Shown here one piece after another: positions 9,288-64,000 of a DNA stretch of 64,000 bases. The notes under the pieces were generated by a model. It ran no database searches, was not told the DNA's origin, and saw only the letters and a program-made list of their open reading frames with translations. The stretch is from sequence record NC_048196.1. One strand, written 5' to 3'. Position 1 is the stretch's first letter. Each line of letters begins with the position of its first letter. This stretch comes from Escherichia phage vB_EcoM_Schickermooser. Made by a program: the position numbers and the translations under genes.

Positions 9288-9884
9288 TTACCAAGGAATA
9301 TCATCTTCTTCTTCCGATTTGGTATCTACTTGAGGTGGACGTGGAACCTTAACCTCTTTAACAAAGCGAAGATATGGGAAACGCGTAGCGATTTTAATAA
9401 CATGTTTGGCATCTTCTCTAACATCTTTGTGCAAGAAGCAGATCCCTGTTTCCAAAGTTGTTTCAAAATCTTTAGAGTAATAACAATCCTTTCCATCAAA
9501 TGCAGCCTGGCAGATGGACAGATCAAACTCATTCAGAAAGGTTGTCATTACATTTGGGTCCATAATCATAAGGTTGCAAAGCTGACCATCACGTTCAAAT
9601 TCAAAAACGTGTTTAAGACCAGTAACACCCTCGTAGTTATCAGAAGCATCTTTGTTTCCTAGTTTACGAATATTAGTTCCCATCAAAGCAGATGCAATCA
9701 AGTCTTGTATTTGCTCTTCTGATCGATGTGCAGGAAGAGACGTGTAAAAATCCAGATCACGTCCAGCAATATCAAGAATACGCCAATCACGAACAGCACC
9801 GCCAGCCAAGACAGAATTAGGATCAGCGATCTTTAATACGGTAAGAATTTCTTTGGCAATATTGATTTGTTTTGATTTAGTCAT
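9288..9884 (-). CDS. hypothetical protein (198 aa), possible pol-beta-type nucleotidyltransferase motif, acidic C-terminal DDIPW tail
   Basis: Motif LAGGAVRDWRILDIAGRDLDFY resembles the GGxVRD...DxD head of CCA/poly(A) nucleotidyltransferases; C-terminus EEEDDIPW is SSB-tail-like. Confidence 0.45.
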   Translation of the reverse strand: MTKSKQINIAKEILTVLKIADPNSVLAGGAVRDWRILDIAGRDLDFYTSLPAHRSEEQIQDLIASALMGTNIRKLGNKDASDNYEGVTGLKHVFEFERDGQLCNLMIMDPNVMTTFLNEFDLSICQAAFDGKDCYYSKDFETTLETGICFLHKDVREDAKHVIKIATRFPYLRFVKEVKVPRPPQVDTKSEEEDDIPW

Positions 9885-45335: not shown

Positions 45336-45692
45336 ATGAAAAAACTAATCTTAGCCACATTGCTGGCTACCGTAAGCTTCACCACTTACGCTCAAAAATT
45401 TGTAGCAGTTAAAACAGATATTGGTAAAGATGTTGTGATCACAGGCAACAAGTTTTACTATACACCTGGGAATGGTGTTCTAGAAGAGTGTAAAGATGTT
45501 GAGGCATATACGGGAAAAGAAGATAACACGGAACGTCCTTTTTATTCGATTATAGCTACTTGCAAAAATGAAATAGTAGCTATTAAACAATACAAAGATG
45601 CCCCTGGAGGAGAGTACTTATTAGTCAAGAATATTAAGAGTGAAAAAACTGCAAAGTTTACAGTAATTATTTTAAAAGGAGAAACGTTCTAA
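45336..45692 (+). CDS. putative secreted protein (118 aa)
   Basis: GGAGGG RBS; signal peptide MKKLILATLLATVSFTTYA. Confidence 0.5.
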   Translation: MKKLILATLLATVSFTTYAQKFVAVKTDIGKDVVITGNKFYYTPGNGVLEECKDVEAYTGKEDNTERPFYSIIATCKNEIVAIKQYKDAPGGEYLLVKNIKSEKTAKFTVIILKGETF

Positions 45693-46831
45693 TGAAATAC
45701 ACTATTTTTGGAGATGTAGCTGTTGTAAATAAGGAATATGGCGTTGAAGCTAATAAACTTCCTGCTGGAGTTTGGGTTGTCAACTGCGATCCGCACGGTA
45801 ACTACTCTTTAGTGCGTGGTGAAAGTTTCTCTCTTCCGAACACTCTTTATGGGGAAACTAAAAATCGCGCCGCACATGTTATTAAAACATTTGCTCGTCG
45901 TAGTAAAGAAGGTAAAAATACTGGGGTGTTACTGACAGGGACAAAAGGCAGTGGTAAGACGATGTTAGCTAAACTGATTAGCATGTCTCTAATGTCCACA
46001 GAAGGTTTAGGTATTCCAACCATTTTGGTTACACAGCCTTACACAGATGCTGGCTTCTTAGAATTTATGAGTAAAATTACAGATCGTGCTGTTGTTTTAT
46101 TTGACGAATTTGATAAAGTGTACGCTAAGAAAGAAGATCAGGAAGCACTGTTGACCTTGTTGGATGGAACAGGAAGTGGGAATAAACTTTACATCCTCAC
46201 TAAAAATAGTGGTTATATCTCGGAATATTTTGTAAACCGTCCTAGTCGTATCTACTACAGTTTCAATTACGATAAACTGTCTAGTGAAACTATGTTAGAT
46301 TACTTGGATAAGAACTTGGTAAATAAAAAGCACGTAGATAACTTCCAACGTTTATGGGATGTTAGCACAGAGTTGTCTTTCGATGTTATTCAAGGCATTG
46401 TAGAAGAATTGAATTTCTATCCAAAAATGACTTTTAAAGAATGTCTTGAAATGATGGGTATTTCTTTAGGGAACGATGCTAAATGGAATGTGGCTTCTAT
46501 CGTAGCTAATGGCAAAACCTTGAAGGTGAATTGGATCAATAACTGGCACGACTTCACCCCTACTAAGTTTTTGTCGGGTGCTTGTTCCCTGAACATCTAT
46601 CTACAAAGTTTGAAAGATGATGAAGTGGAAGCAATGGAAACCAACAGTTATGTTATCCTGGATGAAGATGGTGATCCACATATTGATCTATGTGCAACGG
46701 CTGATGGTCTAACTTGTGATCTGATTGAAGGTGGTAAGATTCTGGTTATGAGCACTACACCAGGAAACACTTTGCGAGTGGTGCTGGAGCCTGTAACACA
46801 ACGTTCCACTACGCTTGGTAGCGTGTTCTAA
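45692..46831 (+). CDS. P-loop NTPase (AAA-like ATPase; 379 aa)
   Basis: Walker A GVLLTGTKGSGKTMLAKL and Walker B VVLFDEFDKV. Confidence 0.65.
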   Translation: MKYTIFGDVAVVNKEYGVEANKLPAGVWVVNCDPHGNYSLVRGESFSLPNTLYGETKNRAAHVIKTFARRSKEGKNTGVLLTGTKGSGKTMLAKLISMSLMSTEGLGIPTILVTQPYTDAGFLEFMSKITDRAVVLFDEFDKVYAKKEDQEALLTLLDGTGSGNKLYILTKNSGYISEYFVNRPSRIYYSFNYDKLSSETMLDYLDKNLVNKKHVDNFQRLWDVSTELSFDVIQGIVEELNFYPKMTFKECLEMMGISLGNDAKWNVASIVANGKTLKVNWINNWHDFTPTKFLSGACSLNIYLQSLKDDEVEAMETNSYVILDEDGDPHIDLCATADGLTCDLIEGGKILVMSTTPGNTLRVVLEPVTQRSTTLGSVF

Positions 46832-46835
46832 TAAA

Positions 46836-46860
46836 GATGCCCCGCAAGGGGCATTTGTTA
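46836..46860 (+). terminator. rho-independent terminator (ATGCCCC-GCAA-GGGGCAT + TTTGTT)
   Basis: 7-bp stem with GCAA tetraloop right after ATPase stop. Confidence 0.7.
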
Positions 46861-46919
46861 TGGAGGGATTTTAGTTATTCTTTTGTTGTAGGCTCGCACT
46901 AATAGCTAAAGGGGGAGGT

Positions 46920-48380
46920 GTGCCAAAAATAGTCACTTGGGAACAATATAAAACAGATATAAAACAAGCTTATCAAGGTAAGTCTTGGACTGTTGTAGAT
47001 TATATTGAGCCGTGGAACGGCAATAAAACTAAACTCAGATGCATCTGTGCTCTGCATGGAGAATGGAAAACAACAAGCATAAATACCGCTAAACTAGGGA
47101 GGGGTTGTCCAGAATGCGGTAGGGAGATTATAAGTAAAGCAGTATCTATAAACAAATCAAAAACCTGGGAGCAATATAAAGAAGAAGTGCAAACCACTTA
47201 CAATCAGGCAGGTAAGTTTTGGACTGTTACAGGATGGCACGGAGAATGGAAAGGATGGAATACTAAACTGGTTTGTTGTTGTGCTTTACATGGGGAGTGG
47301 AGGTCTACTTCTATATCTTCTGCGAAAAACGGGAGTGGATGCAGGAAGTGTATGGGAGAAGCAAACAGAGAAAGAACATCGATTGCATGGGAGAAACATA
47401 AAGAAGAAGTAGAAGAAGCTTATAAAGAAAAACCCTGGATTGTTAGAGGCTATGTGGAACCGTGGAACGGTTCCCGCACTAAGTTGATTTGTGAGTGTAA
47501 GGTTCATGGTCAATGGTGCACTACCACTGTAAACAGTGCTAAACAAGGGACTGGATGCTACAGTTGTCAAAGAGAAATGACGAAACAAAGGAATACTATG
47601 GAGGATAAACAACATGTTGAAGATTTTATAAAAGCTTGTCCTGATAATGTAGAGCGTAAATATTATCGTAGCGATAGAGTAGATAGATTAGGTCGTCAGG
47701 TTTACTGGATTGTAGAATGTCCTATATGTGCAGAGGATGATTATTGTAAAGAAGGCTTATGCGATAATAAATTTGAGATGAAGATGAGTCATTTGAAAAG
47801 GGGTGGCCTTCCTTGCCGTTGTTCTAAATATTATCATTACACTCCTGAACAATGGGCCTACCGTATGACCAAAGCTTGCCAGGAACGAGGGGATCAATTT
47901 ATAGGATTCATTGATAAGGTAAGCAATAACAGCAAGTTTAAATATCTATGTAGGGAGCATGGAGAGCAAACGATCACACCTACCGATTATCTCAATGGGA
48001 AAGGTTGTCCAGGCTGTAAGAACAGAAATATGCAAGAATTTTACATCAATATTATTCTTGATGAGTACGGAGAAGACACGGGAGCTTACAAGTTGGGGAT
48101 TGCAAAGGACAGTGATATCAGGATCAAAGGGCAGAATGCAAACAACAATTACTCTATGCGCCGTATAGCATTGTTCGATCTGCCGTCCTACCAAGCTTGC
48201 AGGGCGTTAGAGAGTAAGCTAAAGTCTAAGACTGATCAGATTCTACCGTCTATTGGCTGTGTAGAACGCTTGCACATGAAAGATGGTCATAGTGAAACCT
48301 TCCTGCGCGAGGATTTGGCTATCGTCTTAAGTGCTATCAACCAAGCAGGTGGAATAATGAGAGAGGAGGAAACATGTTAG
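46920..48380 (+). CDS. Cys-rich tandem-repeat protein with possible C-terminal GIY-YIG-like nuclease region (486 aa)
   Basis: GTG start with AAAGGGGGAGG RBS; three ~70-aa repeats each with WEQYK...W(T/I)V...PWNG..TKL.C.C..HGEW..T...SAK.G.GC..C; C-terminal EFYINIIL...YKLGIAKD is loosely GIY-YIG-like. Confidence 0.6.
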   Translation: MPKIVTWEQYKTDIKQAYQGKSWTVVDYIEPWNGNKTKLRCICALHGEWKTTSINTAKLGRGCPECGREIISKAVSINKSKTWEQYKEEVQTTYNQAGKFWTVTGWHGEWKGWNTKLVCCCALHGEWRSTSISSAKNGSGCRKCMGEANRERTSIAWEKHKEEVEEAYKEKPWIVRGYVEPWNGSRTKLICECKVHGQWCTTTVNSAKQGTGCYSCQREMTKQRNTMEDKQHVEDFIKACPDNVERKYYRSDRVDRLGRQVYWIVECPICAEDDYCKEGLCDNKFEMKMSHLKRGGLPCRCSKYYHYTPEQWAYRMTKACQERGDQFIGFIDKVSNNSKFKYLCREHGEQTITPTDYLNGKGCPGCKNRNMQEFYINIILDEYGEDTGAYKLGIAKDSDIRIKGQNANNNYSMRRIALFDLPSYQACRALESKLKSKTDQILPSIGCVERLHMKDGHSETFLREDLAIVLSAINQAGGIMREEETC

Positions 48381-48739
48381 TTGACGTTCAAATTATGCGC
48401 AACGAAAGAATGGACTTCTTTGAAGCAGTAGAGAAACATCTGATCAGATGGGACTATGAATTTGTTCCTGCTGGATGTGGACCAGTAGAGCATTTAGCGG
48501 AAGACGACGATGTATACATGATCATTCGTCAAGTGTACCAGACAGACCAGTGTGAAGAAACTCCCGAACTGATTTTGTTTGAGTGTAAAGATCTTGCAAA
48601 ATATTTTGACTATGGCGGAAAAGAGGGTCATAATCTCTCCAGATACAATAAACGTCTACTTATCTTAGACTACATGCGGAACAACAAACACAAACTCATC
48701 GACGCAGACGCAGTTTATGGCTACTGGTGGATGGACTAA
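48374..48739 (+). CDS. hypothetical protein (121 aa)
   Basis: GAGGAGG RBS. Confidence 0.5.
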   Translation: MLVDVQIMRNERMDFFEAVEKHLIRWDYEFVPAGCGPVEHLAEDDDVYMIIRQVYQTDQCEETPELILFECKDLAKYFDYGGKEGHNLSRYNKRLLILDYMRNNKHKLIDADAVYGYWWMD

Positions 48740-48752
48740 CAAAGGAGAAACT

Positions 48753-48932
48753 ATGGCACGTTTAGCAGATCATGAAATCTTTAAACCTATTCTGAACCAC
48801 TATGATGAACTTAAAGCAGTGTTGGATTGTTATAGAGAGGATGAAGAACGTTTGGAAGTCAATCTTAAGATAGTTCTGATGAAAGCTTTTCAAGACGGGC
48901 AAGCTAAAGTTTTAGAAGGCATGAAAAAATGA
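48753..48932 (+). CDS. hypothetical protein (59 aa)
   Basis: AGGAG RBS before ATG at 48753. Confidence 0.45.
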   Translation: MARLADHEIFKPILNHYDELKAVLDCYREDEERLEVNLKIVLMKAFQDGQAKVLEGMKK

Positions 48933-49471
48933 GAATAACTGATGAATATGTATTCTTCTTTTCACATAAAGATGTGTTTAGTAATTGGTATATTGCACCC
49001 TTTACAGAAACTGAACCAGGTTACAATGAGACTTTCTGTTGTGTTGAGCAATATATGATGTGGCGTAAGGCTTTGCTGTTCAAGGATCATGCGATTGCAG
49101 CAGCTATCCTTGATCACTCAACTATACGTGACAACGAGAGGAAACAAGCATACTACAAACGTATGGGTCGAGCGGTATCTGGTTTTAATAATAATATGTG
49201 GGAAGAGAACCGTGAGCGTATTGTTATGCGGGGCTTATGCTTGAAATATGTACAGAATCCAGATTTGTATGCAGACTTACACCTTTACCAATACAAAACG
49301 TTTGTTGAAGCAAGTCCTTACGATAAGGTTTACGGTATTGGAATGGGAATGTATGAACCAGGGGTGCTAAACCCTGCTACCTGGAAAGGGCAGAATCTTT
49401 TAGGCAAATATCATAATAAACTGATCGAAATACTTTTCCCAGACAAAATACCGCAAAGACGATATTTGTGA
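48929..49471 (+). CDS. NADAR (YbiA-like) domain protein (180 aa)
   Basis: Hallmark blocks FFFSHKDVFSNWY..PF, FCCVEQYMMWRKALLF and EASPYDKVYGIG as in YbiA/NADAR N-glycosidases. Confidence 0.75.
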   Translation: MRITDEYVFFFSHKDVFSNWYIAPFTETEPGYNETFCCVEQYMMWRKALLFKDHAIAAAILDHSTIRDNERKQAYYKRMGRAVSGFNNNMWEENRERIVMRGLCLKYVQNPDLYADLHLYQYKTFVEASPYDKVYGIGMGMYEPGVLNPATWKGQNLLGKYHNKLIEILFPDKIPQRRYL

Positions 49472-49526: not shown

Positions 49527-49562
49527 AGGCTCCTACAGCACCGTAGAGAGCCTGTTATTTTG
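49527..49562 (+). terminator. rho-independent terminator after NADAR gene
   Basis: GGCTCCTAC-AGCACC-GTAGAGAGCC stem followed by TGTTATTTTG. Confidence 0.55.
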
Positions 49563-49715
49563 TCCTATACAAACCCTTGTCTTTTTCAGTTTGCATCACT
49601 AGGATTCGATCTGAGTGGGTTCCTGAAGGTTTACCAATAAGATTAAAGGTTATATCAAATTCCCACTATCTTTTATCTCAAAAATCCCTCAAATTATTTA
49701 AACTTTTTAAGAATT

Positions 49716-49900
49716 TACAAAAGTGAAAGTTGAAAACCAAAATTTAAAGTTTAGGAAAATTATCTTAAAATGTTAGATACAAAACAAAACTCAAAAGTCA
49801 AGGAAAATTTTAAAAATTTTGCGCGCCCACAGTATTTAAAGTTTTTTTGCTTTTACAAAAATGAAAGTACAAAAGCAAAATTTAAAGTTTACAAAAATTT
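49716..49900. repeat. degenerate A-rich tandem repeats (~68-bp period, about 3 copies)
   Basis: TACAAAAGTGAAAGTTGAAAACCAAAATTTAAAGTTTAGGAAAATT recurs as TACAAAAATGAAAGTACAAAAGCAAAATTTAAAGTTTACAAAAATT, with a partial copy between. Confidence 0.6.
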
Positions 49901-49941
49901 TTATGCAGGTGAAAATGAGAAGAGTTCTCATATGGAAATGC

Positions 49942-50021
49942 AAATGATAATGATTCGCATTTAAGTTTATAAATGAGAATGATTGTCATTTACCTTATTA
50001 AATAAGAATCAATCTCATTTA
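49942..50021. repeat. three 22-bp iteron-like direct repeats at 29-bp spacing
   Basis: AAATGATAATGATTCGCATTTA (49942), AAATGAGAATGATTGTCATTTA (49971), AAATAAGAATCAATCTCATTTA (50000); each is an internal imperfect palindrome; first copy loosely resembles a Fur box. Confidence 0.65.
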
Positions 50022-50280
50022 GAGAATGACGCGCAGGGGCGGTGTTTGTCTCGCGCTCCCGTGTCCCCTCGCCATGTAATAAGAATAACAGATCCAGCCA
50101 GGAAAGCAAGCGATTATTTTATCTTTACATTTCTTTACAAATATATAGCGCCCAGCCTACCGGCGATCAACCTTCCAACCAGTGCCCCCTGGTATGTTAG
50201 CCCCGCCTTTACGCCGTGGGGGTGGCGCTTCCTCTTCTGTATGTAAAACAGTATAAGCCCGATCCCTGGGCTTGTCAAGA

Positions 50281-50544
50281 TTATTTTTTGTTTTCTTGCC
50301 AGGATAGGACACCTAACCAAAAATACATATCGCCCCGCGCCCCTGGTGGTATCTTGCTTTCCCCGCCGCCACTGCAAGCCCATAGATAACCATTTGCGAA
50401 CGTATCAAAATGATCTATTTCTTCCACCCTATGATCGCCCAGGTTGAGAACTGTTTCAACCTTTAAGCCCGTTGCGCTTGCTACCTGGTGCACCGTGCCG
50501 CCTTGCCAGCCCAATGAGTGCATAAGGTGTAATGTAGTTGTCAT
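50281..50544 (-). CDS. possible ORF (87 aa) in GC-rich intergenic segment
   Basis: Only candidate ORF in an otherwise non-coding GC-rich stretch; no convincing RBS; may not be a gene. Confidence 0.2.
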   Translation of the reverse strand: MTTTLHLMHSLGWQGGTVHQVASATGLKVETVLNLGDHRVEEIDHFDTFANGYLWACSGGGESKIPPGARGDMYFWLGVLSWQENKK

Positions 50545-50652
50545 GGTATCGCCCTTTCTTTGTTGTGCGCCCTGGTTGGCGCGGTAGAAAGATAATAGCC
50601 CTTTTCTTTATATATAGCAAGCAAAAAGAAAATAAAAAAGATTGAAAAATGG

Positions 50653-50711
50653 TTGACGTTAACCAGACGGCGGCGTAGTATTCATCTTGTAGGGCGGCAA
50701 TGGTGCCGCTC
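50653..50711 (+). promoter_or_regulatory. promoter-hairpin cassette (TTGACG-17-TAGTAT, hairpin GGGCGGCAATGGTGCCGC)
   Basis: First copy of the repeated unit; hairpin starts 8 nt after the -10 hexamer. Confidence 0.6.
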
Positions 50712-50730
50712 ACTATTTGGAGTTAAGATC

Positions 50731-50928
50731 ATGGCAACATTGCACATTGTGGCGAAAGCTGGACAAATCAACGTAGTGGTAAACGGTTTTACTGAGTTCA
50801 GTCACCCCCAGGATGATCATGAAACGGTTTTATCTTTCATTGATTCCCTGTTAGAAATGGGAGTCATTACAGAAGACCAGCACGCTACAAAATGCAAGCG
50901 CGTTAATCAAATTGCAGGAATAGAATAA
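50731..50928 (+). CDS. hypothetical small protein (65 aa)
   Basis: GGAG RBS; ORF-track N-terminal extension LVGRQWCRS is translation of the hairpin. Confidence 0.5.
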   Translation: MATLHIVAKAGQINVVVNGFTEFSHPQDDHETVLSFIDSLLEMGVITEDQHATKCKRVNQIAGIE

Positions 50929-50934
50929 AAACTA

Positions 50935-50993
50935 TTGACAACAAACAACAACCTGATAAGATGTATCACATAGGGCGGGAAGTGGTTTCCCGC
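50935..50993 (+). promoter_or_regulatory. promoter-hairpin cassette (TTGACA-16-TAAGAT, hairpin GGGCGGGAAGTGGTTTCCCGC)
   Basis: Consensus hexamers at canonical spacing; GC-rich stem-loop 8 nt downstream of -10. Confidence 0.65.
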
Positions 50994-51018
50994 TCGTAAC
51001 AGAAGAGAGATTATCATC

Positions 51019-51291
51019 ATGGCATCATATAGCGCAACAATGATCGTAGCTGGCACAACTGGTAAACCTATGAGCGGTGGCGGATCTTTCGCTAATATCA
51101 ATATTGACGGGCGTTTATCCCTGGACGCAGCGATCGCTATTGCACGGGAAACATTTAAGAAAGAATGTAATTTCAACAAGCAAGATTATCTCGGTTTCGC
51201 TATTGAAAAAACCGCGCGCTTTGTTGATTATAAAAGCCCGAAAATGGTTGATACTACACTAAAAGCGCAAGATGTAGCGTTTTTGCTTTAA
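51019..51291 (+). CDS. hypothetical small protein (90 aa)
   Basis: AGAGAG RBS; follows cassette. Confidence 0.55.
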   Translation: MASYSATMIVAGTTGKPMSGGGSFANINIDGRLSLDAAIAIARETFKKECNFNKQDYLGFAIEKTARFVDYKSPKMVDTTLKAQDVAFLL

Positions 51292-62743: not shown

Positions 62744-62756
62744 TCGACAACAAAAC

Positions 62757-62786
62757 AAGGGGCGCACCAAGCGCCCTTTCTTTTTG
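62757..62786 (+). terminator. rho-independent terminator (AGGGGCGC-ACCAA-GCGCCCT + TTCTTTTT)
   Basis: Strong GC stem plus T-run immediately after the last gene. Confidence 0.8.
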
Positions 62787-63367
62787 CCCGAACAATGTTG
62801 ATAGATTCCACCTATGAAAAACCGACACAGAACAAAATTGCATAATTTGCGCTATCGAGCTAATCAACCATTAAACGAATAACCATACACCCCAGGGCAA
62901 CAGGCTGTTAGAGAGCTATTTAGAGCGGTTAAAATCGATCAACAACCAACAACAAACCATCAAAAACACGCTTTTCCTTCCTTTCCAGTGCAATGATAAC
63001 CATTATCATCTACCCTTGCGTATCTATGCAATATAAGTGCATAACTATAATGTTGATAATAGTTCGCAACAACTAACCAACCAACAACCTAAAACAATAA
63101 GCAAACTAATCATAATCAAAGGAATAATAGAAAGATGATTGATAACGATAAACAATCAAACCATGATGAATACTAAGCAAGATAACGATAACACGACAAA
63201 ACAACCAACTAACTAACGATAACAAACGAAACCATTAAAATAATAATTATTAGCAAAATAGTGCCTGAATGAAATCATTACAAAACGAATCATTCCCAGA
63301 GTCATCATTAGCACGCTATGCCGGACACATAGCGAGCTAATAATAAGCCAACTACACCCCAACAATC

Positions 63368-63422
63368 ATAACCATCGGTGATGGTTATTTCTTGTTACTG
63401 CGTAGCTTGCAATAATTGCAAG
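63368..63422. repeat. palindromes in non-coding terminal region (ATAACCATCGGTGATGGTTAT; CTTGCAATAATTGCAAG)
   Basis: 21-bp perfect palindrome at 63368-63388 and 17-bp near-palindrome at 63406-63422. Confidence 0.5.
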
Positions 63423-64000
63423 CGTAATGACGCTTACACTTATTGCGCTGGCTTATTATTAGCATTATATGTAATTACCAAGATCATAACATTAGCGCAA
63501 TAACAATAATCATTGTAATAATTATGTAAGGAAATAATTAGCATGGCAATAATTATGGGGGCAATGGGAGGATGATTATCATCATTCCGATACATTGCAC
63601 ACTATGCACATAATAGAATAAAAGTCAATAATTTTGGGGGCGAAATGTTACCGCCACAGGCGGGAATGTTGAGCAAGTTCTCTTAAACGTAAATAAAATC
63701 AGAAAATTCTTGATTTATTTTAGTTTATATGTTAATAAACGTTTAAATAATAATCATTCTCATATAAATAATAGTCCGTCTGTCATGAGCGGGATTAGTT
63801 GACATTGTTCCGTCATATGATGAAGTTGCCAAACCATTGATAAATAAGTGTTTGTGTGATTTATAATCAAGTGGCCCACCTTGTCGCTACGTTGGCATGA
63901 GCCTTGCATAAGTCATTGAATACGAATGATAATTATTCTCATTCGCATGATATTTGGGAATTGTCGCTGCGTGGACCTGACGGCCCGAAAATTCGCGTTA

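Follow-up and report, generated by a model that had tools for sequence, protein, structure and literature searches.

What reads the row of short palindromes that lies in a non-coding stretch of the genome of Escherichia phage vB_EcoM_Schickermooser? The window analysed here is a stretch of 64,000 nucleotides (nt) from this phage (sequence record NC_048196.1), the scans of the phage genome cover this 64-kb window, and the palindromes occupy positions 49913-50020. A first-pass annotation of the window had described them as iteron-like repeats and proposed a replication origin or a multi-operator regulatory region, with a loose likeness of one copy to a binding site for Fur, the iron-sensing repressor of the host, as a further possibility. 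The comparisons described below suggest that the palindromes, of which there are four, are probably sites for host Fur and not iterons of a phage replication protein; a probability of about 0.6 is attached to this reading. The window itself is from a Phapecoctavirus (Stephanstirmvirinae) of the phAPEC8-like kind, that is, a virulent Escherichia coli myovirus of about 150 kb. This placement follows from the best megablast matches: the segment 49400-50700 matched 141 phage records, the top one being Escherichia phage nieznany at 99.8% identity, followed by phAPEC8 and its relatives at 95-98%.

The four palindromes, each 21 bp long, were found by a repeat search and start at 49913, 49942, 49971 and 50000, with spacings of 29/29/29 bp. 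The 29-bp spacing reported in the first-pass annotation is therefore real and exact, but the count given there was three, the copy at 49913 having been overlooked. Tandem Repeats Finder reports a period of 29 for 49942-50021 (2.8 copies, 78% matches, score 90). The sites are listed here with their scores under two matrices, one made from phage copies and one derived from E. coli promoters; none has a strand assigned.

49913..49933: Fur-like box 1, AAATGAGAAGAGTTCTCATAT; 25.0 bits with the phage matrix and 13.6 bits with the E. coli-derived matrix
49936..49962: Fur-like box 2, AAATGATAATGATTCGCATTT at 49942-49962, together with an overlapping site 6 bp off that starts at 49936; the main site scores 29.3 bits with the phage matrix and the 6-bp-shifted site 14.1 bits, and no other position in the window scores as high as box 2 with the E. 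coli-derived matrix (19.0 bits)
49971..49991: Fur-like box 3, AAATGAGAATGATTGTCATTT; 31.0 bits with the phage matrix and 18.5 bits with the E. coli-derived matrix
50000..50020: Fur-like box 4, AAATAAGAATCAATCTCATTT; 28.5 bits with the phage matrix and 15.2 bits with the E. coli-derived matrix

The consensus of the array, AAATGAGAATnATTCTCATTT, is a 7-1-7 palindrome that differs at one symmetric position from the Fur core TGATAATnATTATCA. Sequences within three mismatches of AATGAGAATNATTCTCATT occur six times in the window, where 0.11 would be expected, and none of 100 shuffles reached six.

The resemblance to Fur boxes was examined in both directions. The phage matrix, 21 bp wide and made from the six phage copies alone, was applied to 200 kb of E. 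coli K-12, consisting of four 50-kb pieces (the ent/fep, fhuA, fec and cirA regions) in which seven Fur-regulated promoter gaps had been marked beforehand: fecI, fhuA, fepB-entC, fecA, cirA, fepA-fes and fepD-entS. These gaps amount to 1,460 bp, or 0.73% of the sequence. Nine of the 13 top matches fell inside them, all seven gaps were found and the fecI gap ranked first. The second-best match of the phage matrix in the 200 kb, AATTGAGAATCATTCTGAATT (19.8 bits), lies at K-12 position 189,580 between map and rpsB, outside every gap marked as Fur-regulated. In the opposite direction, Gibbs sampling on the seven E. coli gaps, with no phage input, returned TAATGATAATCATTATCATTA, a motif whose correlation with the phage matrix is r = 0.87 in register and no more than 0.42 at any shift. 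When this E. coli-derived motif was scanned over the window, its top eight matches were at 49942, 49971, 63924, 62991, 63745, 50000, 63238 and 49913; the phage matrix likewise confines its sites of at least 12 bits to two zones, 49913-50020 and 62991-63944. Furthermore, some sites overlap with a 6-bp shift, at 49936/49942 and 63918/63924 in the window and at 9472/9478, 9576/9582 and 9611/9617 in phage T5. A classical Fur box consists of three adjacent GATAAT hexamers (PMC4506495), and the shifted, overlapping sites fit this hexamer-repeat make-up. Judged by sequence, the boxes are Fur boxes, and the likeness that had been noted for a single copy is strong for all four units in these reciprocal tests.

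The order of the units within the array has changed among close relatives. The segment 49971-50020, comprising boxes 3 and 4 and the 8-bp linker between them, is inverted relative to phAPEC8, ESCO5 and BI-EHEC with the spacing unchanged; it reads ACCTTATT in this phage and AATAAGGT in the other three. Since the ends of the inversion lie at palindromic boxes, recombination between boxes is suggested as its origin. Such an inversion would be tolerable for palindromic sites and not for directional iterons, which speaks for the Fur-box reading. The inversion also bears on a purely structural explanation, by which the palindromes would serve only as weak bidirectional hairpin terminators or as recombination hot spots and their likeness to Fur boxes would be a coincidence of AT-rich sequence. 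A box-bounded inversion did take place, and the boxes do sit between convergent transcription units. However, three phage lineages have kept the sequence of the boxes and not only their symmetry, Fur sites stand out in both reciprocal matrix tests, and six matches stand against the 0.11 of the shuffles; the hairpins that the boxes could form would be AU-rich, with loops of 1-3 nt and without U-tracts. A structural role alone is scarcely credible.

Four boxes at the exact 29-bp spacing are present in every Phapecoctavirus examined (phAPEC8, ASO2A, ESCO5, BI-EHEC and Mt1B1_P17), so that repeat number and phasing are conserved in close relatives. In phiWec179 there are four, together with an insertion, and in phi92 and alia there are four or five. 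In the Vequintavirinae the number varies: CR3 has four (spaced 38/29/29), phiTE three (29/29), 4MG and KB57 two each (29), and PVP-SE1, pEa_SNUABM_55 and W70 one each. The hosts of CR3, phiTE, 4MG and KB57 are Cronobacter, Pectobacterium, Escherichia and Klebsiella, respectively. The boxes of the Vequintavirinae always lie between a conserved GC-rich element, described below for the window, and direct repeats that are specific to the lineage. Directly after the boxes in this subfamily there is a promoter-like sequence (for example TTGACA...GAGAAAAT in PVP-SE1 and 4MG; loci L016 2950-3460, L019 1790-2000 and L024 1840-2060) that points into three or four direct repeats of about 85 bp, whose sequence is different in each genus. 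The perfect 21-bp palindrome was also found in at least 120 IMG/VR contigs from many environments; 26 of the 120 loci retrieved have at least three boxes within 250 bp, and many of these 26 are T5-sized. Fixed spacings of 17 bp (L093), 37 bp (L038) and 29 bp (L115 and L121) were seen among the IMG/VR arrays.

The second zone of sites in the window lies at the physical end of the genome, where the following features were placed, again without strand.

63672..63999: 328-bp direct terminal repeat, the physical genome end, identified through exact duplications of start and end in BI-EHEC, Mt1B1_P17 and WPEC1
63745-63765 and 63924-63944: Fur-like boxes inside the terminal repeat, 28.1 and 27.2 bits with the phage matrix
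62991..63011: weaker Fur-like box in the non-coding stretch of about 1.3 kb at the right end, 19.3 bits with the phage matrix and 18.0 bits with the E. coli-derived matrix

The same length of 328 bp was given for the terminal repeat of phage Schickermooser by Korf et al. (PMC6563267). With the repeat at 63672-63999, the distance from the array to the physical right end is 13.98 kb; in BI-EHEC it is 12.9 kb, in Mt1B1_P17 13.3 kb and in ESCO5 about 8.9 kb, values that correspond to 6-9% of the genome. From the array to the end all genes are small and on the plus strand, most of them with their own sigma-70-type promoters. Strong sites are present only at the array and in or beside the terminal repeat, and the predicted boxes thus bracket this right-terminal early block of about 14 kb, the array forming its inner border and the boxes of the terminal repeat its outer one.

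Several other observations were made in this part of the genome. From 50640-51020 on, the early genes are arranged as repeated cassettes of a sigma-70 promoter (for example TTGACG-17-TAGTAT at 50653 and TTGACA-16-TAAGAT at 50935), a GC leader hairpin (for example GGGCGG...CCGCTC) and a ribosome-binding site; the leader hairpins have been labelled terminators by some annotators. A bidirectional terminator is seen at 62757-62779, and the non-coding stretch of about 0.9 kb at 62744-63671 has dense runs of weaker Fur-like hexamers, at 62991, 63238, 63451, 63499 and 63568. Several GenBank records begin or end within 63672-63999, or within the box at 63924. A long terminal repeat of the T5 style, hidden in an oversized record, was considered and rejected, as WPEC1 (161 kb) has only the 328-bp repeat. 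In its first 17 kb the WPEC1 record (PV659873.1) has blocks that are inverted and shuffled relative to the window, which may be a mis-assembly.

Phages of the T5 kind match the window by blastn through the array alone. The T5 boxes fall on palindromes E, G and I and direct repeat C of the annotation (AY587007), at 9472-9637 in the left terminal repeat, and score 19.9-32.2 bits with the matrix derived from the window. They adjoin the "7.9%" nick at 9661-9668. The palindromes at this boundary of first-step transfer have been catalogued since the 1980s, and to our knowledge no ligand has been proposed for them. The calculated shear point of first-step transfer in T5 is 9618, and Repeat Region 3, which contains repeat C and palindromes E, G, H and I and is present in the left and right terminal repeats, has been put forward as a candidate injection stop signal, with discussion of DnaA boxes (10.1101/866236); there is no mention of Fur or iron in that paper.

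Which protein could read the same boxes in such different phages? BLASTP found no protein common to the open reading frames (ORFs) at 43-64 kb of the window and those of the T5 left terminal repeat. A tblastn search with E. coli Fur matched 31 phage records, and Stephanstirmvirinae, Vequintavirinae and Demerecviridae phages are absent from the organism tally of these matches, 20 of which are listed one by one; the lone match at 99% is a 1.9-kb fragment of Salmonella host DNA, which shows the query to have been the right sequence. The hosts all belong to the Enterobacterales, a group with the Fur box in common. Since no protein is shared with the T5 region, no Fur of these phage lineages appears in the tally or among the matches listed and the hosts share the Fur box, a host protein would be the simplest common reader of the boxes.

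The T5 parallel raises the possibility of a shared function in DNA entry. In such a scheme the right end of the genome would enter first, transfer would pause with about 14 kb inside the cell, and the Fur-box array with its repeats would be the cis-acting stop or anchor. Consistent with this, the T5 array of the same motif (palindromes E, G and I and repeat C) adjoins both the 7.9% nick and the shear point at 9618; the array is 13.98 kb from the end here and 8.9-13.4 kb in relatives, 6-9% of the genome; the enclosed segment in both phages consists of small genes behind host-type promoters; and phage-specific direct repeats flank the array in both. The differences are nevertheless considerable. 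The T5 array lies inside a 10.1-kb terminal repeat, whereas here it is in unique sequence about 14 kb from the end, outside any long terminal repeat, the repeat being only 328 bp. T5 has paired DnaA boxes (IRD'-spacer-IRC') and a site-specific nick at its array, neither of which was found here, and it has the A1 and A2 proteins, of which no homologue was detected by BLASTP among the ORFs at 43-64 kb. Early genes run toward the genome end here, while the pre-early genes of T5 are bidirectional from promoters inside the repeat. It is also hard to see how a cytoplasmic protein would halt DNA that is still outside the cell, and two-step transfer in these myoviruses was not reported in the literature searched. 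An injection stop at this array is therefore distinctly unlikely. The more general proposal, that two-step delivery of DNA as in T5 extends to the Phapecoctaviruses and possibly to all of the rV5/phi92 group, with the right-terminal 9-14 kb first and with iron-loaded Fur on the array as stop or anchor in both groups, is a long shot; if it were true, genome entry would be sensitive to the iron status of the host.

The sequences on either side of the array bear on the idea of an origin. To its left, the following repeats were found, none with a strand assigned.

49690..49761: A/T-rich direct repeat copy 1, 72 nt, from the repeat search; its core AATTATTTAAASTTTTT is invariant across the subfamily in the alignment columns
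49778..49811: partial middle copy of the A/T-rich repeat, 34 nt, out of register, with 74% identity and spacings of 48 and 90
49828..49899: second full copy of the A/T-rich direct repeat, 72 nt, which shares 82% identity with copy 1 and lies 138 bp downstream of it

These had been described as about three degenerate A-rich repeats of 68 bp. The repeats are real, and the arrangement is looser than that: two 72-nt copies and one out-of-register partial copy, 138 bp between the full copies being 2 x 69. Tandem Repeats Finder gives no 68-bp period anywhere in the window; the proposed period is nonetheless about right, because phi92 has a clean 67-bp tandem repeat at the equivalent place by the same program. 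Intrinsic curvature of the repeats was considered and rejected, as the A-tracts in 49686-49912 are without 10-11-bp periodicity and 83% of shuffles do as well. The GC content is 21-25% across 49650-49950.

To the right of the array, and to the left of the repeats, lie the following elements.

50021..50285, minus strand: conserved GC-rich non-coding element of about 260 bp, abutting box 4
50278-50273 (-35) and 50255-50250 (-10), minus strand: sigma-70 promoter P1, TTGACA-17-TATACT, with 11/12 consensus positions
50109-50104 (-35) and 50087-50082 (-10), minus strand: possible second promoter P2
about 50075-50030, minus strand: conserved hairpin from the alignment, with a U-rich tail just before box 4
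50281..50544, minus strand: conserved ORF of 87 amino acids, co-oriented with P1 (phrog_19316, E=1.8e-57) and annotated in ASO2A, phi92, W70 and others
49527..49553, plus strand: intrinsic terminator after the row of AAA-ATPase, CapR-domain and NADAR genes; phAPEC8 and ASO2A have it annotated at the corresponding place

The gap had been called gene-free over 1.2 kb, a description that does not hold given the 87-amino-acid ORF at 50281-50544 and the conserved element at 50021-50285. The element has 70-99% DNA identity in 230 Stephanstirmvirinae and Vequintavirinae records, far above the neighbouring genes. An alignment of ten genera and species gives a mean column identity of 70%; the hexamers of the promoter do not vary in it, nor do long stretches inside the element, and compensatory changes are seen at five predicted pairs. 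Rfam assigned it to no family and gave only a spurious microRNA match (E = 0.35), and the minus-strand transcript 50245-50021 folds no better than shuffles (folding energy z = 0.28). The element may be a new phage small RNA or a site that acts at the DNA level. Within the 17-bp spacer of P1 there is a terminator-like GC hairpin (50273-50255) followed by a T-run, which is kept in 10/10 aligned phages with differing sequence; the segment 50250-50278 thus appears, on sequence grounds, both to end the mRNA of the 87-amino-acid ORF and to start the next transcript.

On the other side of the gap, the products of the plus-strand gene row at 45692-49471 are an AAA ATPase, a CapR-domain protein in which five CapR-homology repeats were recognised (E = 1.4e-28), and a NADAR-domain protein. 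The NADAR gene and its terminator had been recognised in the first-pass annotation; the former is upheld by Pfam (E=3e-35) and the latter by the depositors of related genomes, who annotated it. At 49527-49553 a hairpin followed by GTTATTTTG is seen in the sequence, and the terminator is not among the listings of a consensus terminator scan. The row looks like a counter-defence module related to ADP-ribose or NAD and not like replication genes. Gene orientation in the window is plus over 1-7.9 kb, minus over 7.9-43.1 kb and plus from 43.2 kb on, and no tRNAs were found in the window. The array itself lies within a stretch of about 470 bp between two facing terminators, that of the NADAR row on the plus strand and the conserved hairpin on the minus strand, the latter being predicted to end short transcripts from the sigma-70 promoters. 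The stretch that contains the array is therefore predicted to be largely free of transcription.

Taken with these flanks, the array could be imagined as a replication origin, with an initiator bound at the palindromes, the 67-69-bp repeats or both, unwinding in the stretch of 22% GC, and Fur as at most an accessory architectural factor; in a variant of this scheme the minus-strand transcript from P1 might prime synthesis, as at the origins of T4 or T7. The GC content of 21-25% across 49650-49950 is that of an AT-rich unwinding element, the direct repeats adjoin host-factor sites, a strong sigma-70 promoter (11/12) points into the AT-rich stretch, the region is flanked by terminators and the whole module is conserved across two subfamilies. 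Moreover, the origin of the rV5-like phages was never located, the skew of rV5 changing only where gene orientation changes (PMC3606486), and Davison has termed the T5 counterpart "reminiscent of oriC" (10.1101/866236). Much stands against an origin, however. There is no DnaA box (TTWTNCACA) within about 6 kb of the gap, the window having seven where 10.8 are expected. No neighbouring gene is initiator-like, the products being the AAA ATPase, the CapR-domain and NADAR proteins and the 87-amino-acid protein, which belongs to no Pfam family. The P1 transcript appears to stop at the conserved hairpin before reaching the array. The units are palindromic and invertible and match the operator of a host repressor, and in T5, according to work cited in 10.1101/866236, the origins were mapped near the genome centre while the array is in the terminal repeat. 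Cumulative GC skew, which had been proposed as a check, has its extremes at about 8 kb and about 43 kb in the 64-kb window, where gene orientation flips, with no switch at 49.9 kb; this is weak evidence, since skew tracks transcription in phages. The architecture of an AT-rich region with iterons that the first-pass annotation had favoured is thus not borne out, and an origin at this place is considered unlikely.

Several points weigh against the reading of the array as Fur sites and need to be set beside the evidence for it. Compared with the 19-bp Fur box consensus GATAATGATAATCATTATC (PMC4506495), the phage boxes agree at only 14-15/19 positions, a level that nine unrelated positions in the window also reach. 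Plain counting against the 19-bp consensus is a poor discriminator, with 21 positions at 14/19 or better, 12 of them in the two zones. The phage consensus also departs from the classical Fur box, with G/C for T/A (TGAGAAT against TGATAAT). The E. coli regions were picked for their Fur promoters, and promoters of other proteins binding AT-rich palindromes, such as ArgR, were not among the controls. Promoter-like matches that overlap the boxes are no commoner than expected: weak ones are, for example, at 49973-49944 on the minus strand and 63724-63751 on the plus strand, a plus-strand candidate at 49888 is not conserved, and Fur boxes themselves resemble -10 hexamers. The array thus lies over no convincing promoter, and for this reason classical repression by promoter occlusion is not obviously applicable. 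Nor would titration of Fur away from host genes make sense in T5, because T5 destroys host DNA early, and the need for an iron-dependent protein is left unexplained, because a terminator would suffice as a barrier to transcription. Finally, binding of Fur to the boxes is itself predicted from their sequence.

The same G/C for T/A difference, systematic at one symmetric position, could indicate that the boxes are operators for a phage-encoded DNA-binding protein that prefers a Fur-like palindrome, host Fur being irrelevant. The rigid 29-bp phasing would suit a dedicated higher-order complex, and a conserved protein of 87 amino acids is encoded beside the array. Against such an assignment, GAGAAT/ATTCTC half-sites also occur in natural E. 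coli Fur sites, for example those of fecI and fhuA; the T5-like phages have the motif but no detectable shared protein, the 87-amino-acid ORF being unmatched in the T5 left terminal repeat; and no Fur-family gene of these lineages is among the tblastn matches listed. A dedicated phage protein as the reader is very unlikely.

If the boxes are read by Fur, a mechanism can be proposed. In an iron-replete cell, Fe2+-Fur dimers would occupy all four boxes; up to two Fur dimers bind per Fur box, on nearly opposite faces of the DNA (PMC4506495). A spacing of 29 bp corresponds to about 2.76 helical turns, by which successive boxes would be rotated by about a quarter turn (about 90 degrees), and the complex would, because of this rotation, coat about 110 bp all round rather than loop the DNA. 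Such a coat would amount to a nucleoprotein barrier, dependent on iron, at the inner edge of the segment expressed first, an edge which it would mark or insulate. Its target could be RNA polymerase, though terminators are already present, or, by parallel with T5, entering DNA.

Fur boxes are textbook operators, and the T5 palindromes have been catalogued. What appears to be unreported in the literature searched is the equation of the T5 palindromes with Fur boxes and the finding that two myovirus subfamilies have kept phased arrays at the border of the early block; no report linking Fur to T5 or to these phages was found in that literature. The boxes occur here as phased arrays in virulent phages, outside any clear promoter, and they are conserved across Stephanstirmvirinae, Vequintavirinae and T5-like Demerecviridae, among which no shared reader protein was found. 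Recognition as Fur boxes would give the injection stop of T5, a 60-year-old question, a concrete candidate that is cheap to test. In the rV5/phi92/phAPEC8 group, a frequent component of cocktails for phage therapy, the comparisons identify a control region that is non-coding and conserved, and the possibility is raised that infection is tuned to the iron status of the host, which changes sharply in the gut and in infected tissue.

The array may finally be compared with four known systems. Like the iteron origins (lambda ori, P1 oriR and R6K gamma) it has clustered repeats of about 20 bp beside an AT-rich stretch and host-factor sites; unlike them its units are palindromic, tolerate inversion and match a host repressor, with neither an adjacent initiator gene nor DnaA boxes. 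With Repeat Region 3 of T5 it shares the motif, in T5 as arrays of 4-5 boxes of which palindrome G, AAATGAGAATCATTATCATTT, scores 32.2 bits with the window matrix, the non-coding setting beside lineage-specific direct repeats, and a place where the terminal segment that is expressed first has its inner border (at 6-9% of the genome here, at 7.9% in T5), whereas the T5 spacing is irregular (35/23/46/35 bp) and that of the window fixed at 29 bp. Compared with the Fur boxes of Enterobacterales (fecI, fhuA, fepB-entC and cirA), the phage boxes belong to a virulent phage, lie over no identifiable promoter and form discrete 29-bp units instead of contiguous hexamer runs; the AT-rich palindrome of 19-21 bp, its register, the half-site variants and the 6-bp-shifted sites are shared. 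The E. coli ftnA gene offers a precedent for Fur sites of this kind, since its upstream Fur sites act without occluding the promoter and Fur there displaces H-NS. No target promoter was found in the phage, a role for H-NS would be conjecture and the neighbouring A-tracts are not helically phased; nevertheless, as at ftnA, several predicted Fur sites lie away from a core promoter, in AT-rich DNA of the kind that H-NS prefers.

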